Source of the DNA: Escherichia phage Lindwurm
Length of the DNA: 64,000 nucleotides
Reading direction: 5' to 3' (one strand)
Sequence record: NC_134264.1
A model generated the notes under the pieces. It was not told where the DNA came from, did not search any database, and worked only from the letters and a program-made list of their open reading frames with translations. This document shows, in pieces, positions 15,068-25,373 of this stretch. Each line of letters starts with the position of its first letter. Positions within the stretch are counted from its first letter, which is position 1. A program made the position numbers and the translations under genes.

Positions 15068-17913
15068 AGAAAATACTAGATAGTGCTAGAAACTACTTAA
15101 AAAATAATAGCAGAATAAAAACTGCTAGTCTAATTTCCCTAGAATTACCTGGCTCTACTGGTACTAGTACTGCTTTTATTTATTTAACTGATTATTTTAG
15201 AGATGTACTATATAATGGTATTTTGTACCAGGCCGGTAAGGTTAAGTCCATTAGCACACATAAACAAAATAGAGATTTATCTATTGGCAGTCTATCTTTT
15301 ACTATTACAGGTACAGCGCAGGATGAAGTACTGAAATTAGTGCAGAATGGTGTGTCCTTTTTAGATAGAATAGTAACAATCCACCAAGCAATTATTACAG
15401 AGGATGGTTCTATTTTACCTGTAGACCCAGACACAAATGGCCCTTTATTATACTTTAGAGGGAGAATTACCGGTGGGGGTATTAAGGACAATATTAGTAC
15501 TTCTGGGGTTGGAACCTCCACAATTACTTGGAATTGTTCTAACCAATTCTATGATTTTGATAGGGTTAATGGTAGATTTACTGATGATGCTTCTCACAGA
15601 GGGCTTGAAGTTGTGGCAGGACAATTAGTTCCATCTAACGGGGCTAAAAGACTTGAATACCAAGAAGATTATGGGTTCTTTCATGCTAATAAAAGTATCT
15701 CTATTTTAGCAAAATATCAGGTACAGGAAGAAAGATACAAGCTAAAGTCTAAGAAAAAGCTATTTGGCTTATCTAGAAGCTATAGTCTTAAAAAGTATTA
15801 TGAGACTGTTACTAAAGAAGTAGATATAGATTTTAACCTTGCTGCTAAGTATATACCAGTAGTTTATGGCGTACAGAAAATACCGGGAATACCTATTTTT
15901 GCGGATACGGAACTACACAATCCTAATATAGTTTACGTAGTATATGCTTTTGCTGAAGGAGAGATAGACGGTTTTCTTGACTTTTCCTTCGGGGATAACC
16001 CTATGATTTGTATGGACTCTAATGATAGCTCTGCTAGAACCTGTTTCGGTGTTAAAAAAGTAGCAGGAGACACCATGCAAAGAATAGCATCAGGAGTATC
16101 TTCTAGTAGTCCTTCTGTGCATGGTCAGGAATATAAGTATAATGATGGTAATGGTGATATAAGGATTTGGACTTATCATGGAAAAGCAGACCAAACGGCT
16201 TCTGAAGTATTAGTAGACATAGCGAAAGAACGTGGGTTCTACCTTCAAAATATGAACGGTAATGGGCCTGAGTACTGGGATGCTAGGTATAAGCTATTAG
16301 ATACTGCATACGCGGTAGTACGCTTTACTATTAATGAAAATAGAACTGAGATCCCAGAAGTTAGTGCTGAGATTCAGGGTAAGAAGGTAAAAATCTATCA
16401 TTCTGATGGTAGAGTAACTGCTAACAACACTAGTTTAAATGGTATCTGGCAAACACTTGATTACTTAACTTCAGATAGATACGGTGCTAACATTACCATT
16501 GATCAATTCCCTCTTCAACAATTGATACAAGAAGCTGCTATCCTAGATATTATAGATGAATCTTACCAAGTATCCTGGCAGCCATACTGGAGATACGTTG
16601 GGTGGACTGATCCATTAGCAGAAAATAGACAAATAGTACAAATGAATACTATTCTAGATACATCTGAATCAGTATTTAAAAATGTGCAAGGTTTGCTAGA
16701 GTCCTATGGCGGGGCTATTAACAACTTATCTGGCCAGTATAGGATTACTGTAGAAAAATACTCTAATACTCCATTAGAGATTAATTTTCTGGATACTTAT
16801 GGTGATTTAGAGCTATCAGATACTACTGGTAGAAATAAATTCAACTCAGTTCAAGCATCTATCGTAGACCCAGCTCTTAGCTGGAAAACTAACTCTATTA
16901 CCTTTTACAACTCTAAATATAAAGAGCAAGATAAAAATTTAGACAAAAAATTACAATTATCTTTTGCAAATATAACTAACTACTATACTGCTAGAAGTTT
17001 TGCAGACAGAGAGCTTAAAAAATCTAGGTATTCTAGAACCCTCTCATTTTCTTTACCATACCAATTCATTGGTATTGAGCCTAACGATGCTATTGCATTT
17101 ACATACGACCGTTATGGGTGGGATAAGAAATACTTTTTAGTAGATGAAGTAGAAAACTCTAGAGAAGGAAAGATAAACGTCACCCTACAGGAGTATGGAG
17201 AAGATGTATTTATCAACTCTGATCAAGTAGATAATAGTGGCAATGATATACCAGATATTAGTAACAATGTTCTTCCTCCTAGAGATTTTAAATATACTCC
17301 TACACCTGGTGGTTTAGTTGGTTCTATAGGAAAAAATGGTGAGTTATCTTGGCTTCCAAGTTTAACTAATAATGTAGTTTATTACTCTATTGTGCATTCC
17401 GGTCATGCTGAGCCTTATATTGTGCAGCAACTAGAAACAAACCCCAATGAACGCATGATCCAAGAGATAATTGGAGAGCCTGCAGGTTTAGCAATATTTG
17501 AAATAAGGGCCGTGGATATAAACGGTAGAAGAAGTTCTCCAGTAACATTATCTATAGAACTTAACTCTGCTAAAAACCTAAGTGTAGTATCTAATTTTAG
17601 GGTAACTAATACGGCTTCTGGGGATGTAACTGAGTTTGTAGGCCCAGATGTAAAACTAGTTTGGGATAGGATACCAGAAGAAGATATAATAGAAAGTATA
17701 TTCTATACTCTGGAGATCTATGATTCTCAGAATAGAATGCTAAGAAGTGTACGTATTGAAAATCAGTATACTTATGACTATTTATTAATGTATAATAAGG
17801 CAGATTTTGCTCTTCATAACAGCGATGCTCTAGGAATCAATAGAAAACTATATTTTCGTATTAGAGCAGAAGGAGATGATGGAGAACAGTCTGTGGAATG
17901 GGCATCCATTTAA
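15064..17913 (+). CDS. baseplate hub / tail-associated protein (949 aa, T5 pb3-like)
   Basis: Length and synteny. Confidence 0.75.
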   Translation: MKKILDSARNYLKNNSRIKTASLISLELPGSTGTSTAFIYLTDYFRDVLYNGILYQAGKVKSISTHKQNRDLSIGSLSFTITGTAQDEVLKLVQNGVSFLDRIVTIHQAIITEDGSILPVDPDTNGPLLYFRGRITGGGIKDNISTSGVGTSTITWNCSNQFYDFDRVNGRFTDDASHRGLEVVAGQLVPSNGAKRLEYQEDYGFFHANKSISILAKYQVQEERYKLKSKKKLFGLSRSYSLKKYYETVTKEVDIDFNLAAKYIPVVYGVQKIPGIPIFADTELHNPNIVYVVYAFAEGEIDGFLDFSFGDNPMICMDSNDSSARTCFGVKKVAGDTMQRIASGVSSSSPSVHGQEYKYNDGNGDIRIWTYHGKADQTASEVLVDIAKERGFYLQNMNGNGPEYWDARYKLLDTAYAVVRFTINENRTEIPEVSAEIQGKKVKIYHSDGRVTANNTSLNGIWQTLDYLTSDRYGANITIDQFPLQQLIQEAAILDIIDESYQVSWQPYWRYVGWTDPLAENRQIVQMNTILDTSESVFKNVQGLLESYGGAINNLSGQYRITVEKYSNTPLEINFLDTYGDLELSDTTGRNKFNSVQASIVDPALSWKTNSITFYNSKYKEQDKNLDKKLQLSFANITNYYTARSFADRELKKSRYSRTLSFSLPYQFIGIEPNDAIAFTYDRYGWDKKYFLVDEVENSREGKINVTLQEYGEDVFINSDQVDNSGNDIPDISNNVLPPRDFKYTPTPGGLVGSIGKNGELSWLPSLTNNVVYYSIVHSGHAEPYIVQQLETNPNERMIQEIIGEPAGLAIFEIRAVDINGRRSSPVTLSIELNSAKNLSVVSNFRVTNTASGDVTEFVGPDVKLVWDRIPEEDIIESIFYTLEIYDSQNRMLRSVRIENQYTYDYLLMYNKADFALHNSDALGINRKLYFRIRAEGDDGEQSVEWASI

Positions 17914-19970
17914 TGATTTCGAATAATGCACCAGCCAAAATGGTCTTAAATAGTATAATGACTGGATATACAATGGCATATGTCCAGCACTCTATATATA
18001 CTGACTATGACGTTATTGGTAGATCTTTTTGGTTAAAGACAGGAGAAAGTATAGATAGACGTGATTATACTGGTATAGATACTTTCTTCGTAATGATTAA
18101 TAACCTGACCCCTTCAACCTCTTATGAGATTCAAGGGGCTTTTTATGATTCTATTATAGATTCTGAGCTACTAGAGGCTAAAATTGGTATCATTCTATCT
18201 AATGAAACCAATTTTAAGACAAAAGAAAAGCCAACAATTGTTGCAGCAAGATCTGAGTCAGAACCTGTAGATGTTGGGGTGGGCTCACCAATAGTTGTTG
18301 TGGAAACAGCAGGTGAAGCGAGCTACTGTACTATTGAGTTAAAAAGTACAGCCTCTGAAGATACCCCATGGGTTAAATATTATATTGGGGCTCTCAGCTC
18401 TACTATTAAATTTGGGGGAGTTCCTATTGGGGATTATAAGATCAGAATATCCGGTCAAGTAACTATGCCTGATGGTGTTACAATTGATTCTTCCGGTTAC
18501 TATGAATTCCCTACTATTCTAACTGTAGCATATAATTTTGTTCCCCCTACCGCACCTATCAATATTGTTTTTAAAGCTGCACGAATTGCAGATGGTAAAG
18601 AACGGTATGATGTTAGAATTGAGTGGGATTGGGAACGCGGTGTTGGTGCTAATGTTCGTGAGTTCTTGGTTACTTATATAAACTCCGAAGAATACGCTAA
18701 GACTGGCTGGGCTAAAGCTCAAAAGATAAACGTTGGTGCTGCTAGAGCTGCAACGATTATATCATTCCCATGGAAAGTTGAACATACTTTTAAGGTATCA
18801 TCAATTGCCTGGGGACCAAATAGGCAGGATATAACAGACTCTACAGTACAGACTTTTATACTAAATGAAGATACTCCTCTAGATAACAGTTTTGTTAATG
18901 AGACTGGTATTGATGTTAATTATGCCTTTATTAAGGGTAGTATGAAAGAGGGAGAAATATGGAGACAGACATTCTTAATTGATGCAGCTACTGGTGCTGT
19001 TAATATTGGTCTGCTAGACGAAGAAGGTAAAGCACCTATTTCTTTCGACCCTATAAATCGTATTGTTAACGTTGACGGTAAAGTAATTACTAGAGATATT
19101 AATGCCGCTAACTTTATCATGACTAACTTGTCTGGTAAAGATAATCCAGCAATTTATACTCAAGGTAAATCTTGGGGGGATAATAACTCCGGTATTTGGA
19201 TGGGTATGGATAATACTTCTGCTAAGCCAAGGTTAGATATAGGTAATGCTACCCAATGGATACGTTATGATGGTGATACTCTTCGTATCTCTAGTGGAGT
19301 TATTATAGGTACTCCTAATGGTGATATAGATCTGGGTACTGGTATGCAAGGTAAGCAAACAGTATTTGTTTATAAGTTAGCAACATCTCTACCTGCTAAA
19401 CCACTAGAACAAGATTATCCGCCTCCTGGTTGGTCAAAAACTCCACCTAACCGTACAGATATGACACAAAATATCTATGCGACTACGGGTACACTTGATC
19501 CAGTTACTAACAAACTTCTTGAAGGTACTAGCTGGTCTGATGTAGTTCAGTGGAGTGGTACTGAAGGTACTATTGGTGCAGATGGTCAAAGGGGTCCTGG
19601 CATGTATTCTTTAGGTATTCCTGGTCTTGGTGGTTGGGATGATGGGCAAGCTAATACCTTTTTCCAGAATAACTTTGGTAGTCCACCAGTTAGATATGAT
19701 GTATTGACTGAGTTTAATAGTAATGCTCCGCAATCCGCGTTTACTCGTCAATGGAATGGTTCCGGTTGGGTTAACCCAGCAATGGTACTGCACGGTGATA
19801 TGATCGTTAATGGTACGGTAACTGCTAGTAAAATTGTTGCTAATAACGCTTTCTTATCACAAATTGGTGTAAATATTATATATGATAGGAACGCTGCATT
19901 ATCTGATAACCCGGAAGCCTACTACAAGATGAAGATAGACCTGCAAAATGGGTACATTCATATAAGGTAA
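17898..19970 (+). CDS. central straight fibre protein (690 aa, T5 pb4-like)
   Basis: Length and synteny; beta-rich repeat composition. Confidence 0.7.
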
Positions 19971-19974
19971 AATA

Positions 19975-20397
19975 ATGAGTACTGAAAATAGAGTTATAGA
20001 TTTAGTAATAGACGAAAATGTACCATATGGTCTAATGATGCAGTTCTTAGACGTTGATGATAGTACTTATCCTCCTACAAATACTCCTGTTAACTTAACC
20101 GGATATTCTCTAAGAGGTACTGTAAAAAATAGCCTAGATGAGAATGCGGAGATATTAGCATCCTTTACTACTAATATTATTGATGCTGCTCAGGGGGCTG
20201 TAGCTATAAGTTTGCCAGTAGAATCTGTGGAAAATATAGGAGCTAAAGCATCTAAAGATAGAGATAAATATAACCCCCGTCAGCGATTCGCAGGATACTA
20301 TGATATAATTATGACTAGAGATGTTATAGGATCTGCAATTAGCTCCTTTCGTATAATGGAGGGTAAAGTATTTATCAGTGATGGAGTAACTAAATAA
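19975..20397 (+). CDS. collar protein (140 aa, T5 p132-like)
   Basis: Small ORF immediately upstream of lateral fibre gene. Confidence 0.6.
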
Positions 20398-22826
20398 TGG
20401 CAGTAACTACTAAAATTATTGTACAGCAGATATTAAATATTGATGATACTAAAGCTACTGCTAGTAAATTTCCTAGATATACAGTAGCTCTAGGTAATTC
20501 TATTAGCTCTATTACCGCAAGTGAGTTAGTATCTTCTATTGAGGCAGCAGCTAAGTCTGCTGCAGCTGCAAAAGATTCTGAGATAGCGGCTAAAACTTCG
20601 GAACTTAATGCTAAGAACTCTGAACAGGAAGCTGCTATTTCTGCTGGAGCTTCTGAAACTTCTGCTACTCAGTCCGCTGCATCCGCTACTCAGTCTGCAG
20701 CATCAGCAACTGCTGCTAAAACATCTGAGGCTAACGCAAAGGCTAGCGAAGTTAGTGCTGCTGAGTATGCTGCCGCTGCTAAAACTTCTGAGACTAATGC
20801 AAAGGCTAGCGAAGTTAGTGCATCTGGATATGCTGATTCAGCAAAAACTAGTGAAACTAATGCAAAAACTAGTGAAACTAATGCAAAAACTAGTGAGACT
20901 AATGCAAAAACTAGTGAGACTAATGCAGCTGCATCTGCTTCTAGCTCTAGAGGATCCAGGGATGAGGCAGAAGTATTCGCAACACAAGCTGCCGCATCAG
21001 CAGCAGCAGCAAAAAATTCGGAAAGTAATGCAAGTGCTAGTGAGATTAATTCAAAAGCTAGTGAAGATGCTGCCAAGCAAGCGCAAGTAGATGCTGCTGG
21101 TTCTGCCAACACTGCATCACAAGCTGTAAACACAATTCAAGGTCTTAAATCAGAGGTTGAGCAGTTAAAAACAGACACACAGGGTATTAAGGATAGTGCA
21201 GTAAGGGAAACTACTGCGTTAAAAGATGCCACCGCTGCATCAGCTGCACAAGCTATAACCACAATTGAAGGTCTTAAATCAGATGTTGAACAGTTAAAAA
21301 CCGACACCCAGAGTATTAAGGACAATGCAGTAACGGAAACTACAGCGCTAAAAGACGCTGCGGCTGCTTCAGCTACACAAGCAAGTAATAGCGCTACCGA
21401 AGCGGGACAACAAGCCAGCAATGCTGCTGGTAGTGCAAATAGCGCTAAGGGTGACGCTGACCGTGCAAATGCAGAAGCAGACCGTGCGGAAGTTGCAGCT
21501 AATAGGGCTCCTGATCTTCAACCATTCCCTGATGTATGGATTCCATTTAATGACTCGCTTGATATGCTTGCAGGTTACTCGCCAGGGTATAAGAAAATAA
21601 CAGTTGGTGAAGATGTTATTACAATGCCTTCTGATAAGGTTGTTAGTTTCTCGCGTGCGTCAAATGCAACATACATAAATAAGCATGGTGAATTTTGTAT
21701 TGCTAATATCGATGAACCCCGATTTGAAAAGCAAGGACTCTTGATTGAAGGCCAGAGGACAAATCACATTACTTTCAGTAATGACCCAGCTTCATTAAAT
21801 ACAGATAAATACCGTAGTGATGTTACTTATAGTGTTGATAAGTATGGTTTTGCATATGCAACGGCGACAGCAAACGAAAAGTCACAAGGTGTGTATCCTT
21901 CATTATTTTATTGTGAAACCGTAAATGCAATCAACTGTCAGCAAAATGAATACGTTTCTTTATCTATACGAGTAAAGGCAAACTTGGATATCTATATCAC
22001 CCCACAATTTTATTTAGTAGGTGAGGATGGAGGTCTTATTCTTGGAGCTAGATCTTTCATAAATTGCGAAACCGGCGAAGTTTCTTCTGTAGTAGAAGGG
22101 AGGGGGACTATAGCACATAGAATATATAGAGAAGACAACGGATGGTTGAAAGTTGAAGCTATGTGTAAATTTGTAGAACGTGGAGGTAGTTCTATTGGAT
22201 CTGTAAATTATTGTCGGAATAATGATCAACCTGCGCAAGTTGGGGATACAATATCATTTTGTACTCCTCAATTTGAAAAAGGTTTTTGTGCATCCTCCTT
22301 CATTATTACGGGAAGCACGCCTGCAACAAGGGCTCTGGATTATGTTACTATACCTGCAAGAAATAATTTCTCAGGGACGAATATTTCATTCCTTGCTGAG
22401 GTAAGTATCAACTGGGATAGCTTTCAATTAGCTAATACATATCCAATGATAATGGACAACAATAAATATGATATAGCCGGAGAATCTTTTGTATCTGAGA
22501 TGATTATATCTACAATGCAGCCCAACGTTTACTTTTTAAATAAAGAAACTGGTAGCCCCATTGGTTCGAATGGAGCTTCGTTTAGCGGGGTAGGCGTCCC
22601 CTCTGTATGGGGGTTTATACATACAAAAAATGGGGATGTAACATCGTTTTTGAATGGTTTTAAGAATATAACATCCTCCGGTTCAACGTGGGAAGGACTA
22701 TCTCCGGATTCCTTGCTGGAGATAGGCGGTAGACCTTCAAATTCAACTAAATTGTATGGTCATATTCGTAACCTTAGAATATGGAATCGAGTATTAACGG
22801 ATAGTCAAATGAGGGAGAGAGTTTAA
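20397..22826 (+). CDS. lateral tail fibre protein, proximal subunit (809 aa), pb1-like N-terminus with heptad/43-aa repeats
   Basis: N-terminus resembles T5 L-shaped fibre as recalled (ITASKFPRYTV, KTSETNA repeats); distinct C-terminal domain. Confidence 0.8.
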   Translation: MAVTTKIIVQQILNIDDTKATASKFPRYTVALGNSISSITASELVSSIEAAAKSAAAAKDSEIAAKTSELNAKNSEQEAAISAGASETSATQSAASATQSAASATAAKTSEANAKASEVSAAEYAAAAKTSETNAKASEVSASGYADSAKTSETNAKTSETNAKTSETNAKTSETNAAASASSSRGSRDEAEVFATQAAASAAAAKNSESNASASEINSKASEDAAKQAQVDAAGSANTASQAVNTIQGLKSEVEQLKTDTQGIKDSAVRETTALKDATAASAAQAITTIEGLKSDVEQLKTDTQSIKDNAVTETTALKDAAAASATQASNSATEAGQQASNAAGSANSAKGDADRANAEADRAEVAANRAPDLQPFPDVWIPFNDSLDMLAGYSPGYKKITVGEDVITMPSDKVVSFSRASNATYINKHGEFCIANIDEPRFEKQGLLIEGQRTNHITFSNDPASLNTDKYRSDVTYSVDKYGFAYATATANEKSQGVYPSLFYCETVNAINCQQNEYVSLSIRVKANLDIYITPQFYLVGEDGGLILGARSFINCETGEVSSVVEGRGTIAHRIYREDNGWLKVEAMCKFVERGGSSIGSVNYCRNNDQPAQVGDTISFCTPQFEKGFCASSFIITGSTPATRALDYVTIPARNNFSGTNISFLAEVSINWDSFQLANTYPMIMDNNKYDIAGESFVSEMIISTMQPNVYFLNKETGSPIGSNGASFSGVGVPSVWGFIHTKNGDVTSFLNGFKNITSSGSTWEGLSPDSLLEIGGRPSNSTKLYGHIRNLRIWNRVLTDSQMRERV
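20844..20927 (+). repeat. 4 x 21-bp perfect/near-perfect tandem repeat inside fibre gene (encodes KTSETNA heptads)
   Basis: AAAACTAGTGA(A/G)ACTAATGCA repeated head-to-tail four times. Confidence 0.9.
21120..21377 (+). repeat. 2 x 129-bp imperfect direct repeat inside fibre gene (43-aa module)
   Basis: CAAGCTGTAAACACAATTCAAGGTCTTAAATCAG... vs CAAGCTATAACCACAATTGAAGGTCTTAAATCAG... Confidence 0.85.
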
Positions 22827-22827
22827 A

Positions 22828-23094
22828 GTGAAAGATATTAGCTTGCAATTTAAAGACGAAAAACATTATCGGGATGTTGTCATTAGTAGTGAGTGGCTTA
22901 AGACAAACTACGGTAAAGTGTTTGTAGATGAAATTGGTTTTGTCCTCATAGTAGATGACCCGAAAAGTAAGACTCCAGTTGTCATTGGAAAAGAGGGCTA
23001 TTATATAAACATAAGAATAATAGGGGACGATGTGGACTTGTCAGATCTTGAACAATTTATTATTAAGAATCCCTGCGTACGTAAATGGGCATAA
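22828..23094 (+). CDS. small protein between fibre genes (88 aa, GTG start), possible fibre adaptor/assembly factor
   Basis: GTG start 7-10 nt after GAGGGAGAGAG; tightly packed between two fibre genes. Confidence 0.45.
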   Translation: MKDISLQFKDEKHYRDVVISSEWLKTNYGKVFVDEIGFVLIVDDPKSKTPVVIGKEGYYINIRIIGDDVDLSDLEQFIIKNPCVRKWA

Positions 23095-23104
23095 GAGGTG
23101 ATCA

Positions 23105-24865
23105 ATGACTACTTATACTAGTATTCCCCAGGATATTACAAAACTTAAAAACGAGTCTCTTAATAAGAATAATAACTTAAGCGACTTAGCAGATCGCGCA
23201 GCTGCGTGGCTAAATGTTCGTCCTATTGGATCTACTCCCCTTGCGGGAGACCCTGTTAATGATTATGATGCTGTAACTAAGCGTTGGGTGGAGAACAAAA
23301 TTAATACTGGTACAGTAGGACCCACAATGAATGGTGTTATGAACTACGGGGTAGGGGATTTTCATCTTCGAGATAGCCGTGCGTATATTCAACCTTATGA
23401 GGTAGTTTCTGATGGGCAGCTTCTTAACAGGGCTGACTGGCCGGAGCTTTGGGCTTACGCTCAAATGGTGGGGGCAATTAGTGATGACATTTGGGTGTCT
23501 GATACCAAACAACGTGGGAAATATTCTACGGGAGATGGTACCACTACTTTCCGCGTCCCAGATCGTAATGGTGTGCAACTAAATTCAATCAAAGGGTTAT
23601 TCGCTCGTGGTGACGGTGGGGGAGATGCTGGTCAAGCTGGTTCAATATCAGAAGCTGCAGCACCCAATATTACTGGTAGTTTTCCTGGCGCTATTGCTGG
23701 TGCGTATGAATCCGCAATTAACGTATATTCATCACAAAAAGGTCTTCCCGGTGCGCTCAATGGGGAAAATGGATTAGGTGTTGATAGGGACGGTTTAAGT
23801 AAATCTGGCACTGTACCTGCACCGGATAATACATACGGATTTAGCTTTGATGCTAGTAGAGCTGACCCTGTTTATGGACGTTATGGAATAACAGGTACTA
23901 TTATTCCAAATAACTTTATAGGTGTCTGGGTAATCCGCGCATCAGGCGGGTTCGTTGCTGCGAATACATCGTGGAGTGTTAAGAACGCCGATAAAAGCGC
24001 ACCTCCGCTCGGCACTGTCGTCCGTGGCGGTGAGGTGGTATCGGAATATTCCAACCCAGAATCTAAGAAGTTCGCCCGTCTGTACTCAAGCTCTGTATGG
24101 GGTTCTCCTAACGCGGCTGTTGTTGAATCTCAAGGGGCAGATATGCACCCATTCAGGTTCTATGAGAACGGTAACATGGACTTCCGAAAGTCCGGTCATG
24201 GAAACGCTTTGGGGATGTATTCTGTCCAGGTCTCCTGGGATCCGTTACTCCGTGCGGGGACGTCCAACTTGGTTACGGGCGGGGTTGATCGTGTGTCGGA
24301 AGGTGCTGGCTCGGATATCGTAGTAGTTGGTTATTCACTTGGTGCGGTTGGCCCAACAGGGTATCCAACCAAAGTAGGATTCCACCAATACATGCCGGGA
24401 AGTCCTGCATTCGGTTCGGCGGTCATTACTGTTGGTGGTGATAACAATAATTGGGCGCGGTACTTCTTTGATATCACCGGGCAGATTTACGGGGCTACAA
24501 GCAACGGCGAGTTCAGCTACACGCGTAACGGTGTATCTGATGAGCGGGTTAAGCATGACATCTCCCCTGTAGGTGTTGATAAGTCGTACTCTAATATTCA
24601 AGGTCTGGAGTTTGTAAAGTTCGTCTACAATAACGACGAGCAGGAGCGCGTCCGGCATGGTGTAATCGCGCAGCAGGCGGAGACTGTTGAACCTCTATAC
24701 GTTAAGACCCGTAAGTACGTGGGTATTAATCCAGGAGAGGTTGTGGAGCAGAAGGAACTGGACACCACGCCGATGCTTCTGGATACCATGCACGTTGTGC
24801 AAGTATTGATGCAGAGAATCGAATCGATGGAAGCTGAGATTGCTGAATTAAAGGCAAGTAAGTAA
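23105..24865 (+). CDS. tail fibre protein, distal subunit (586 aa) with phage tail-collar-type motif and C-terminal intramolecular chaperone (peptidase S74-like) domain
   Basis: N-terminal fibre motif DPVNDYDAVTKRWVE; FRVPDRNGVQ...RGDGGG; C-terminal SDERVKHDIS... chaperone signature. Confidence 0.8.
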   Translation: MTTYTSIPQDITKLKNESLNKNNNLSDLADRAAAWLNVRPIGSTPLAGDPVNDYDAVTKRWVENKINTGTVGPTMNGVMNYGVGDFHLRDSRAYIQPYEVVSDGQLLNRADWPELWAYAQMVGAISDDIWVSDTKQRGKYSTGDGTTTFRVPDRNGVQLNSIKGLFARGDGGGDAGQAGSISEAAAPNITGSFPGAIAGAYESAINVYSSQKGLPGALNGENGLGVDRDGLSKSGTVPAPDNTYGFSFDASRADPVYGRYGITGTIIPNNFIGVWVIRASGGFVAANTSWSVKNADKSAPPLGTVVRGGEVVSEYSNPESKKFARLYSSSVWGSPNAAVVESQGADMHPFRFYENGNMDFRKSGHGNALGMYSVQVSWDPLLRAGTSNLVTGGVDRVSEGAGSDIVVVGYSLGAVGPTGYPTKVGFHQYMPGSPAFGSAVITVGGDNNNWARYFFDITGQIYGATSNGEFSYTRNGVSDERVKHDISPVGVDKSYSNIQGLEFVKFVYNNDEQERVRHGVIAQQAETVEPLYVKTRKYVGINPGEVVEQKELDTTPMLLDTMHVVQVLMQRIESMEAEIAELKASK

Positions 24866-24868
24866 ATA

Positions 24869-24902
24869 AAAACCCCAAAGGGATATCCCTTTGGGGTTTT
24901 TT
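24869..24902. terminator. bidirectional terminator between convergent fibre and dUTPase genes
   Basis: 14-bp perfect stem AAAACCCCAAAGGG/CCCTTTGGGGTTTT flanked by A-tract and T-tract. Confidence 0.85.
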
Positions 24903-24926
24903 ATTATTACTTAACTAATGGGTGGA

Positions 24927-25373
24927 TTATTTACTTCCTGAACTTCCAAATCCACCTTCCCCACGATCAGTCTCCCCTAGTTTATCAACTATTTCAAAAT
25001 TATGCGTTGAGTAGTGCGGTACTACTACTAGTTGACAAAGTCTTTCAAAATTCTCCAGAGTTTGAATTTCAGAACCATAGTTATAGAGGTTCATCTTAAT
25101 AGTTCCACGATAGTCTGAGTCGATCACTCCTGTGGTATTTGCAATCATCAAATGACGTTTACCTAAAGAACTACGAGGAACTACCAAACCGAACCAACCT
25201 CGCGGAATTTCCACCGCGACACCGGTGTCAATCATTAAGGATTTGCCGGGTGCAATAGCACGTAAATCTGCAGCAGGGTTAGTACCAAAGAATGCTCGCA
25301 GATCCATACCTGCAGCATCTTCGGAACCAATCTTAGGCATACAATCTGGATGAGTTAACTTAATTTTAATCAT
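24927..25373 (-). CDS. dut: dUTPase
   Basis: Motifs RSSLGK, GVIDSDYRG typical of trimeric dUTPases. Confidence 0.9.
   Translation of the reverse strand: MIKIKLTHPDCMPKIGSEDAAGMDLRAFFGTNPAADLRAIAPGKSLMIDTGVAVEIPRGWFGLVVPRSSLGKRHLMIANTTGVIDSDYRGTIKMNLYNYGSEIQTLENFERLCQLVVVPHYSTHNFEIVDKLGETDRGEGGFGSSGSK

Follow-up and report, generated by a model that had tools for sequence, protein, structure and literature searches.

The lateral tail fiber locus of Escherichia phage Lindwurm raises the question of what kind of fiber is built when three consecutive genes stand in the place of the single pb1 gene of T5. The locus was analyzed within a window of 64,000 nucleotides (sequence record NC_134264.1), by which we mean the whole stretch of DNA under study. 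A first-pass annotation had proposed that the single T5 gene is replaced by a multi-protein lateral fiber, and the similarity searches for all three proteins agree with this view. It had also tentatively assigned the locus to the branched LtfA/LtfB type found in DT57C, an assignment that we abandon below.

Gene Layout and Locus Type

The open reading frame list places all three proteins, here called A, B, and C, after the LtfC collar gene, at the following positions.

19975-20397, + strand: LtfC collar gene, 140 aa, the ring gripping the lateral fiber N-termini (Pfam LtfC, 1.5e-14)
20397-22826, + strand: protein A, proximal lateral fiber, 809 aa, ATG start (PHROG 1419 "tail protein", 6.5e-220)
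22828-23094, + strand: protein B, uncharacterized, 88 aa, GTG start (PHROG 1361, 4.1e-28)
23105-24865, + strand: protein C, distal, putatively "T-shaped" receptor-binding fiber, 586 aa, ATG start (PHROG 6921, 2.3e-181)
24868-24901, both strands: bidirectional intrinsic terminator at the end of the late tail operon, a 15-bp stem between T-runs

The LtfC match scores 54.8 bits against a Pfam cut-off of 27, and the role of LtfC as a collar comes from cryo-EM work on DT57C (PMC10713586). Its homologues occur in 878 phage records, and every sampled one is a large Demerecviridae genome. The LtfC and A genes share one base. Proteins A, B, and C are encoded by closely packed genes, each with a ribosome-binding site, and the terminator search found no strong internal terminator on the + strand among them. 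The terminator after C separates this gene from the convergent dUTPase gene. All three PHROG matches are strong and are to phage tail families, and each protein is kept in many phages.

Judged by sequence, Lindwurm is an AKFV33-like Tequintavirus, and its locus belongs to the AKFV33/IrisVonRoten type, a conserved cassette of three genes. This type is recognized by the neck and lectin-like end of A, a middle gene of 88-93 aa, and a tagged distal fiber resembling Gp24. The locus also has the hallmarks of an LtfC-anchored T5-like fiber, with LtfC directly upstream and N-terminal strands of the pb1/LtfA type followed by a trimerizing helix. The three-gene layout was already known from AKFV33 in 2012 (PMC3326045) and from the IrisVonRoten model in 2025 (PMC11990801), and it is ordinary for these relatives, save for the unstudied small protein B.

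Protein A: Anchor, Shaft, Neck, and Lectin-like End

Five segments can be distinguished in protein A.

20397-20927, + strand: residues 1-177, anchor of the pb1/LtfA type, running into the helical shaft (pb1, LtfA, and 8hqz matches)
20664-21382, + strand: Ala/Ser/Thr/Glu-rich shaft with in-frame tandem repeats (repeat search)
21510-21758, + strand: residues 372-454, conserved "neck" PDLQPFPDVWIPFNDSL...EPRFEKQGLLIEGQR (cross-lineage identity)
21741-22334, + strand: residues 449-646, jelly-roll domain (NCBIfam GTA_spike_fiber, above cut-off)
22518-22808, + strand: residues 708-804, LamG/ConA-like segment

The annotation had described the N-terminus of this protein as resembling the pb1 anchor and its C-terminal half as unrelated to pb1, and both descriptions proved correct. 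Residues 1-177 are 57% identical to residues 1-204 of T5 pb1, and BLASTP finds no similarity to pb1 past the anchor. Protein A is also 46% identical to residues 1-226 of DT57C LtfA, with the first ~60 residues near-identical, and its N-terminus matches PDB 8hqz chain d (5.8e-35). On account of this near-identity to the solved LtfA N-terminus, the first ~40 residues of A are expected to insert into the LtfC collar in the same way as those of T5 pb1 and DT57C LtfA.

Residues ~40-370 would form a trimeric helical shaft whose length varies through in-frame tandem repeats. The repeats comprise 21 bp in 4.1 copies (98% match, unit AKTSETN), 63 bp in 2.5 copies, and 129 bp in 2.1 copies. Homologues of A range from 537 to 816 aa, the C-terminal 438 aa being common to all, and the shaft repeats are probably the source of the variation in fiber length.

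Residues 372-809 would comprise the conserved neck, followed by lectin-like jelly-roll domains. The identity of the neck is 69-100% in all lineages, whereas the remaining C-terminus of A falls to ~30%. Most of the invariant columns in a 43-sequence alignment of the A family (2,532 members in total) lie in the neck. The neck is just as conserved in ~52 prophage loci that have lost C, so its conservation does not serve C alone. The monomer model of A reaches an overall pLDDT of 68, with values below 50 in the neck, which suggests that the neck may need oligomerization or partners. The sole Pfam match in A is Laminin_G_3, and the same search found no Peptidase_S74 domain (PF13884). The jelly-roll domains probably provide an extra glycan-binding site. 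Homologues of A have been detected in virions by mass spectrometry, in AKFV33 (ORF137; PMC3326045) and in mar004NP2 (PMC6563131).

Protein C: The Distal Fiber

Three segments of protein C bear on its attachment and receptor binding.

23105-23149, + strand: residues 1-15, MTTYTSIPQDITKLK, conserved peptide at the N-terminus, proposed to mediate docking (motif conservation)
23519-23572, + strand: residues 139-156, tail-collar or Gp12-like motif inside the first receptor-binding region
24536-24865, + strand: residues 478-586, intramolecular chaperone domain (Pfam Peptidase_S74, 3.1e-10)

Protein C is 85% identical to its PH204 homologue over the whole protein, 51% identical to IrisVonRoten Gp24 over its full length, and 44-45% identical to the distal parts of DT57C LtfA and LtfB; neither sequence nor profile searches match it to the tip of T5 pb1. 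Gp24 has been modeled as a T-shaped, dual-receptor fiber seated on the proximal Gp22, which carries a galectin-like domain (PMC11990801). By homology to Gp24, C may likewise form a "T" consisting of a Gp12-like RBD1 and a T5-like RBD2.

Three motifs had been ascribed to C. At its N-terminus, C does carry a conserved motif, M-x-T-x-T-x-IP-x-DI-[T/K]-x-LK. The tail-collar-type motif holds in part: FRVPDRNGVQ...RGDGGG does occur at residues 149-173, but the Pfam Collar match stays below threshold, at 14-19 bits where the cut-off is 24, and extends over no more than the final 17 model positions. The homologous region of IrisVonRoten is the Gp12-like RBD1 (PMC11990801). The C-terminal intramolecular chaperone is borne out by the Peptidase_S74 match, which scores 40.6 bits (cut-off 22) at residues 478-530, and the C family profile matches the solved chaperone-domain structures 7dc3, 6f45, 8jov, and 3gud. 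In the alignment with PH204, a cleavage motif VS/DERVK (slash at the bond) occupies residues 477-483. From the S-D-x-R-x-K motif of Peptidase_S74-type chaperones (PMC4728585), self-cleavage is predicted between Ser478 and Asp479 (NGVS/DERVKHDI). With pb1 replaced, and with C as a receptor-binding fiber carrying its own chaperone, the host-range determinants are unlike those of T5, as the annotation had expected.

Proposed Architecture of the Lateral Fiber

We consider it probable that Lindwurm builds a three-component lateral tail fiber of the AKFV33/IrisVonRoten type, in which A is anchored in the collar and a separate distal fiber, C, docks on the end of A, with B possibly taking part. Protein C would be a trimer in which two variable receptor-binding regions are followed by a C-terminal chaperone domain, predicted to remove itself by cleavage after Ser478. 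Beside the observed gene content, homologies, folds, synteny, and conserved motif, we infer a docking geometry in which C, having no virion anchor of its own, is most likely attached by its N-terminal peptide to the A end. As many as three kinds of binding site could be present on each of the three fibers. Protein B may be an assembly factor, in the position of lambda Tfa, or a structural joint, comparable to the small T4 proteins between the proximal and distal fiber genes.

Protein B: Chaperone or Joint

The GTG start of B aligns exactly with the ATG starts of SP15, SelmaRatti, WP85, SA126VB, and PH204 and with the GTG starts of AKFV33 and FFH1. This codon is preceded by a GAGGGAGAG ribosome-binding site and lies one base past the stop codon of A. 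The annotation had called this reading frame uncharacterized, and so it is: PHROG 1361 has no known function, B matches nothing in Pfam or NCBIfam, and none of the 270 clusters of its family carries a functional name or a Pfam domain. The AlphaFold2 model (pLDDT 89) is a small alpha/beta fold for which no specific structural relative emerged, and Foldseek against viral models returned uncharacterized proteins only. A weak match to PDB 6d2y (E 0.005) was rejected, as the fold searches gave it no support. An exhaustive profile search with B yielded 93 clusters, almost all of which consist of independent proteins 85-110 aa long. It also brought up a small number of very long proteins that were matched partially at several places. 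These are PKD-repeat proteins, and we took the apparent fusions as spurious strand-motif matches.

Protein B lies directly 3' of an A-type C-terminus in all 89 tabulated loci, and the same adjacency was seen in a further four prophage loci examined individually, as well as in the myovirus prophage context. By this genomic company, B is an obligate partner of the A-type fiber end.

What B does for that end can be read in two ways. The first, to which we give somewhat less than an even chance, is that B serves solely to chaperone the folding or assembly of the lectin-bearing end of A, with a function similar to that of lambda Tfa. It would then be missing from virions, and C would dock on A alone. 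The position of B is that of Tfa, directly downstream of the fiber gene that it would serve, and this applies to lambdoid and myovirus prophages as well. Moreover, B stays intact in the ~52 prophage loci lacking C, as 14 alleles in two groups of only ~63% nucleotide identity, and the IrisVonRoten complex is given as Gp22 plus Gp24, with the small protein not discussed (PMC11990801). However, searches of Pfam, PHROG, NCBIfam, and folds reveal no similarity of B, in sequence or fold, to any known fiber chaperone family. Its co-variation with the lectin domain is also not strict. Three loci (L016, L024, and L029) break the correlation: their B proteins share 53-62% identity with Lindwurm B, against only 29-36% for the lectin part of A. 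Among the loci that lack C, comparison of the two allele groups shows saturation at synonymous sites, and the synonymous and non-synonymous counts within groups are too small to reveal selection.

The second reading, possible but the less probable of the two, is that B remains in the fiber as a structural joint, clamping the C protein by its N-terminal peptide to the A end. The order of proximal fiber, small protein, and distal fiber is held in five phage lineages, and BASEL labels the B homologues "tail fiber protein". In pairwise identities, co-variation links the opening 10 residues of C to both B and the A C-terminus (r 0.73-0.80), the divergence of B tracking these residues with r 0.80. 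However, C starts 10 nt after B, and linkage alone could explain this co-variation; the pairwise identities of the A, B, and C segments fall into clear mosaic blocks, in which co-adaptation and linkage are inseparable by correlation. A clamp for C also fits poorly with the persistence of B where C is absent, and proteomics lends the joint no support. In AKFV33 and mar004NP2, B homologues are not among the proteins identified (PMC3326045, PMC6563131), but these number only 4 and 8, so that their silence on B says little either way.

Spread of the Cassette and the Distal-Fiber Tag

The N-terminal tag M-x-T-x-T-x-IP-x-DI-[T/K]-x-LK is found in 18 of 18 distal fibers of virulent phages. It also precedes otherwise unrelated distal fibers, namely those of JenP1/JenP2, a myovirus prophage (L092), and three lambdoid loci (L097, L098, and L099). 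The cassette of A C-terminus, B, and C occurs in five lineages: T5-like phages, Seuratvirus, Nonagvirus, lambdoid prophages, and a myovirus prophage. The ~60-kb Seuratvirus phages share the A C-terminus and B at 91-95% protein identity, and their A starts with a lambda-Stf-type N-terminus (PF08400) instead of the pb1-type anchor that threads into LtfC. Both the retention of the tag in five lineages, even on unrelated C proteins, and the presence of the cassette in Seuratvirus without a pb1-type anchor argue that C docks on A or B and not on the collar. A scan of species-representative bacterial genomes gave only 3 loci, too few for broad statistics.

We tentatively suggest, as a possibility that we rate well below even, that a portable system for coupling fiber to fiber, made up of the A C-terminal module, B, and the ~15-residue N-terminal peptide of C, is shared by siphoviruses and at least one myovirus prophage. 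Protein B would be its homologue-less joint, locking fibers tagged with M-x-T-x-T-x-IP-x-DI-x-x-LK onto a lectin-bearing proximal fiber. If true, this system would offer a defined plug-in point at which receptor-binding fibers could be swapped between unrelated phages. Compared with the published accounts, the adjacency of B and A, the cross-lineage cassette, and the N-terminal tag of the distal fiber are new. The wider interest of the locus lies in the conserved and unstudied B, and in the tag, which marks a junction reused in five lineages and a natural breakpoint for fiber swaps.

Relation to Known Lateral Fibers

The branched fiber of DT57C and DT571/2 (PMC4728585, PMC10713586) shares with Lindwurm the LtfC collar, an LtfA-type anchor, distal modules homologous to C, a chaperone domain on the distal fiber, and the use of more than one protein per fiber. 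If Lindwurm had this type of fiber, A would be LtfA with its own receptor tip, and C would be LtfB, docking through a phiEco32 gp15-like N-terminal domain on a gp14-like region in A. Protein C is indeed 45% identical to LtfB residues 206-788, and the mar004NP2 paper names its C homologue an "ltfB orthologue" (PMC6563131). We nevertheless regard this reading as very unlikely. Beyond LtfA residue ~226, A and LtfA have nothing in common: LtfA continues with an internal gp14-like docking region and 19-aa repeats and finishes in a receptor tip and chaperone domain, whereas A has a lectin-like end without Peptidase_S74. The alignment of C to LtfB covers residues 206-788 only; LtfB residues 1-205, the gp15-like attachment domain of ~200 aa proposed for docking, are missing from C, and Lindwurm thus has no junction of the gp14/gp15 type. 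Furthermore, C aligns equally well to LtfA residues 508-1076, its start coinciding with that of the LtfA distal half and its first residues resembling LtfA 508-530. Finally, DT57C has no homologue of the extra small gene B, and the gap between ltfA and ltfB is only 38 nt.

Although C matches the distal half of the single-chain DT57C LtfA, the idea that A, B, and C are pieces of one fiber gene broken by mutation or sequencing error has a negligible probability, in keeping with the annotation's reading of separate genes: A has its own complete C-terminal domains and ends where its sampled homologues end (conserved to the last residues in the 43-sequence alignment, with 89 of 89 surveyed upstream reading frames aligning through the last residue), B is an independent conserved family, the starts of B and C are conserved, and the three frames, each preceded by its own ribosome-binding site, are seen again in at least 18 loci from several phage groups.

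T5 itself has the collar, the N-terminal anchor (57% over ~200 residues), and the site between the collar gene and dut in common with Lindwurm. In contrast, its pb1 (Ltf) is one L-shaped chain, measured at 1396 aa and close to the ~1400 aa given in the annotation, and T5 has no B. Lambda Stf/Tfa, with a fiber gene followed by a small accessory gene, and T4 gp34-gp35-gp36-gp37, with proximal and distal half-fibers in order and small proteins between them, are functional analogies only; no sequence or fold similarity of B to either system was found.

The same gene order as in Lindwurm follows LtfC in IrisVonRoten (Bas32; PMC11990801): the proximal Gp22 with its galectin-like domain, Gp23, and the T-shaped distal Gp24. 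The architecture of A and the N-terminal motif of C are the same, and residues 11-60 of C are 96% identical. Conversely, the A C-terminus is only 36% identical and B only ~34%. The two receptor-binding regions are 68% and 42% identical, and the receptor specificity is therefore probably different. Two further papers were set aside as comparisons: the Phi37 Ltf evolution paper appears to treat another, single-protein fiber, and the PH204 engineering paper concerns pb3 and pb4, not a fiber locus of the Lindwurm type.

Lateral fibers set which O-antigen types a T5-like phage penetrates, and the type of this locus therefore matters for predicting and engineering host range. The closest genomes overall are AKFV33, with the order ltpA (ORF137), ORF136, and ltpB (ORF135) (PMC3326045), and its relatives FFH1, I14, NBEco002, and phiAPCEc03, at 92-94% nucleotide identity in the tail region. 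Their A C-terminus is 85-93% and their B 80-81% identical to those of Lindwurm, but the similarity ends ~120-160 residues into C, and the distal receptor-binding part is only 25-31% identical. For distal C, the nearest relative is Salmonella phage PH204. The Lindwurm locus is a further mosaic allele of a known architecture, combining an AKFV33-like backbone with a PH204-like distal fiber.

Organization of the fibre locus

The ORF list bore out the coordinates and ORF descriptions of the first-pass annotation. The features of the locus are as follows.

17898-19970, + strand, pb4 straight-fibre gene (ORF list; four PB4 Pfam domains)
19975-20397, + strand, LtfC collar gene (Pfam LtfC, 1.5e-14)
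20397-22826, + strand, A, 809-aa ORF (proximal lateral fibre)
22828-23094, + strand, B, 88-aa ORF with a GTG start (small protein)
23105-24865, + strand, C, 586-aa ORF (distal fibre)
24868-24901, bidirectional terminator with a 15-bp stem, between C and the convergent dUTPase gene

The GTG of B lies 1 base past the stop codon of A and is preceded by the ribosome-binding site GAGGGAGAG. The homologues in SP15, SelmaRatti, WP85, SA126VB and PH204 have a starting ATG at the aligned position, and those in AKFV33 and FFH1 a GTG. C has a separate ribosome-binding site, AAGAGGTGA.

On the dut side of C, positions 24866-24927 hold the terminator only, with no extra genes. One small extra gene separates the distal fibre gene from dut in SelmaRatti (L002, 5676-5939), and two do so in WP85 (L003, 6729-7345). 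GC skew in the window is positive to ~24 kb, negative over ~26-52 kb and positive again beyond; the first switch coincides with the point, at ~24.9 kb, where the tail genes on the + strand give way to convergent genes on the - strand. A search of the whole window (1-64000) gave no tRNA genes.

Relatives and earlier descriptions

Over its first 25 kb, the window shares 92-94% identity with Tequintavirus phages of the AKFV33 group (I14, AKFV33, NBEco002, FFH1 and phiAPCEc03). Since no phage record covers at least 80% of the fibre region at high identity, the fibre locus is a new mosaic. The nearest relatives of the A C-terminus and of B are found in WP85, FFH1 and PH204, and also in ~60-kb Seuratvirus phages, while that of C is in Salmonella phage PH204 (85% protein identity). 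In pairwise identities, the A C-terminus, B and C residues 1-10 co-vary (r 0.73-0.88), a pattern that linkage by itself could generate; C residues 11-300 and 301-end vary independently.

The architecture itself is already known from several accounts. AKFV33 was described in 2012 as devoid of pb1, with fibres of two proteins, ORF137 (ltpA) and ORF135 (ltpB); mass spectrometry showed ORF137 to be present in virions, and the paper does not discuss ORF136. The mar004NP2 paper reported an 'ltfB orthologue' with two extra genes ahead of it, and its mass spectrometry identified the A homologue. BASEL 2021 described such fibres as 'a single large polypeptide or 2 (or more) separate proteins', and BASEL 2025 modelled the complex, joining the distal fibre Gp24 of IrisVonRoten to the proximal fibre Gp22 (PMC11990801). 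Gp24 is 51% identical to C across its whole length; the model gives it a 'T-shaped' form with two receptor-binding domains, the first Gp12-like and the second T5-like, and a chaperone domain. The locus thus belongs, as a new mosaic, to the known three-gene type of AKFV33 and IrisVonRoten, and B is an unstudied member of that architecture.

Proximal and distal fibre proteins

As the first reading of the sequence had proposed, A joins a pb1-like N-terminus to an unrelated C-terminal half: residues 1-177 are 57% identical to residues 1-204 of T5 pb1 (1396 aa), and similarity to pb1 is absent past residue 177. Residues 1-226 are 46% identical to DT57C LtfA, the first ~60 being nearly identical, and DT57C LtfA (8hqz, chain d) is the sole relative by sequence with a solved structure. 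In DT57C, the N-terminal residues of LtfA contribute strands to the LtfC ring and the helix from T40 onward forms a trimer (PMC10713586). From this likeness, A would be anchored in the same way.

Residues ~40-370 of A form a shaft rich in Ala, Ser, Thr and Glu, with in-frame tandem repeats (window 20664-20927 and 21118-21382) of 21 bp x4.1 (98% match, unit AKTSETN), 63 bp x2.5 and 129 bp x2.1. Across homologues, the length of A runs from 537 to 816 aa with the last 438 residues constant, and the shaft is therefore the length-variable part. Differences of up to ~280 residues in the shaft suggest that the repeats drive changes in fibre length. In SP15 (L001, 1997-4538) the annotation splits the A homologue into two overlapping CDS of 203 and 651 aa, and in WP85 (L003, 2186-2415) a 229-nt unannotated gap separates LtfC from the point where A is annotated to begin; in both cases the repeat-rich shaft appears frameshifted or mis-annotated.

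Residues 372-809 place A in a family of 2,532 proteins, mostly from E. coli prophages, with names such as 'prophage tail fiber N-terminal domain-containing', 'LamG-like jellyroll' and 'phage head spike fiber domain'. Residues 449-646 match NCBIfam GTA_spike_fiber above the cut-off, and residues 708-804 match Pfam Laminin_G_3 slightly below it. An AlphaFold2 model of this end, based on an alignment of 43 family members, has good confidence over ~454-641, is moderate elsewhere and is poor for the neck (372-453). The neck is the most conserved segment of A (69-100% identity across lineages), equally so in loci with and without C.

The chaperone domain previously recognized at the C-terminal end of C is supported by a Pfam Peptidase_S74 match at residues 478-530 and by a profile of C homologues that matches solved chaperone-domain structures. 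From what is known of this chaperone family, self-cleavage is predicted within VSDERVK, between Ser478 and Asp479. The 'tail-collar' motif also assigned to C is present as a motif, but the Pfam Collar match is sub-threshold only.

The first-pass annotation had placed the locus in the DT57C-like LtfA/LtfB type, with host-range determinants unlike those of T5. We agree on the latter and on a multi-protein lateral fibre in general, but the assignment is wrong for the junction. C aligns with DT57C LtfB residues 206-788 (45% identity) and equally well with LtfA residues 508-1076 (44%), with near-identity over the first ~150 residues of the alignment; it therefore corresponds to the distal module carried by both DT57C proteins. 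It lacks a counterpart of the N-terminal 205 residues of LtfB, a phiEco32 gp15-like part proposed to dock onto LtfA (PMC4728585). A lacks three features of DT57C LtfA, namely the internal docking region, the receptor tip and the chaperone domain, and DT57C has no B-like gene.

A probable fibre junction shared by several phage lineages

The remaining interest lies in this junction, where the uncharacterised B and a conserved N-terminal tag of the distal fibre are reused across phage lineages. Loci were gathered by searching B in phage records and viral contigs, and the adjoining ORFs were read. In all 89 loci, the C-terminus of the ORF that stops at the start of B is a homologue of A residues 372-809. 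In 18 loci, selected by a motif-bearing downstream ORF and including the window, B is followed by a fibre gene starting with M-x-T-x-T-x-IP-x-DI-T-x-LK; they belong to Seuratvirus, Nonagvirus and T5-like phages with two types of B. JenP1 and JenP2 keep the tag although the remaining protein is unrelated to C.

The same order occurs in an E. coli prophage (SQOD01000024.1; L092, 3533-7227) with the Baseplate_J and Tail_P2_I genes of a myovirus. Its 799-aa fibre ends in an A-type neck and lectin module, its B homologue has 92 aa (hhalign E 1.7e-48), and the following ORF begins MATVTTIPADITNLK and continues as a fibre of another kind. The cassette is therefore not confined to one tail morphotype. 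It recurs in lambdoid prophages of Escherichia ruysiae and Escherichia sp. and in a contig labelled Collinsella, where A and B are followed by a short fibre with the start MATSTVIP[D/G]DI[K/T]TLK and then by a putative membrane protein of ~97 aa. The Collinsella contig (L099, 2.8 kb, labelled MAG Collinsella sp.) holds an Escherichia-type lambdoid fibre cassette and probably reflects contamination during binning, not a prophage of Collinsella.

Seuratvirus phages have three parts in common with the window: the A C-terminus, at up to 95% identity, B, at ~91%, and the beginning of C. Their A N-terminus is of the lambda-Stf type (PF08400), not a pb1 anchor, and among the sampled matches LtfC homologues occur only in Demerecviridae-size genomes. 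The distal fibre is thus independent of the T5 collar, and its partner should be a feature common to the lineages, the A-type end and/or B. We propose that the N-terminal peptide of ~15 residues, which alone is shared by all distal fibres, is likely the docking element. These sequence comparisons argue against direct attachment of C to the collar, the scenario that the earlier annotation had set against its own model.

An exception to the motif rule is found in an IMG/VR contig (3300045988_076772, 54.6 kb; L029, 1014-6782), where a protein of 1325 aa has the A-type end, B (88 aa) is 53% identical to that of the window, and the third protein, of 500 aa, lacks the tag (MSITTEGKVTAEKG...).

The small protein B

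B was rightly described as uncharacterised: it has no match in Pfam or NCBIfam and belongs to PHROG 1361, 'unknown function'. None of the 270 clusters of its family (90% identity) carries a functional name or Pfam domain, and in the 93 clusters (50% identity) from an exhaustive search the protein almost always stands alone, at 85-110 aa. AlphaFold2 predicts with confidence (pLDDT 89) a small alpha/beta fold, for which no specific structural relative was found.

Two roles can be considered. About 52 E. coli lambdoid prophage loci carry A, B and the putative membrane protein with no distal fibre, the simplest reading being that they arose by deletion. Among them are 14 alleles of B, all with intact reading frames, in two groups ~63% identical at the nucleotide level; synonymous and non-synonymous changes are few, below what a reading of selection on B needs. 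Since B is kept where C is lost and occupies the Tfa position, an assembly factor for A has a modest edge over a structural joint, which ranks behind it. B does not simply track the lectin domain, as it is 53-62% identical to that of the window in three loci (L016, L024 and L029) where the lectin part of A is ~30% identical.

The ~97-aa hydrophobic protein (MDISPLLHALCAVAAQ...) closes the cassette in lambdoid Escherichia prophages whether or not a distal fibre gene is present (L007, 5292-5585; L097, 7360-7668; L098, 7007-7294; ~52 IMG/VR loci, L032-L091), and is possibly a membrane protein or a prophage cargo gene.
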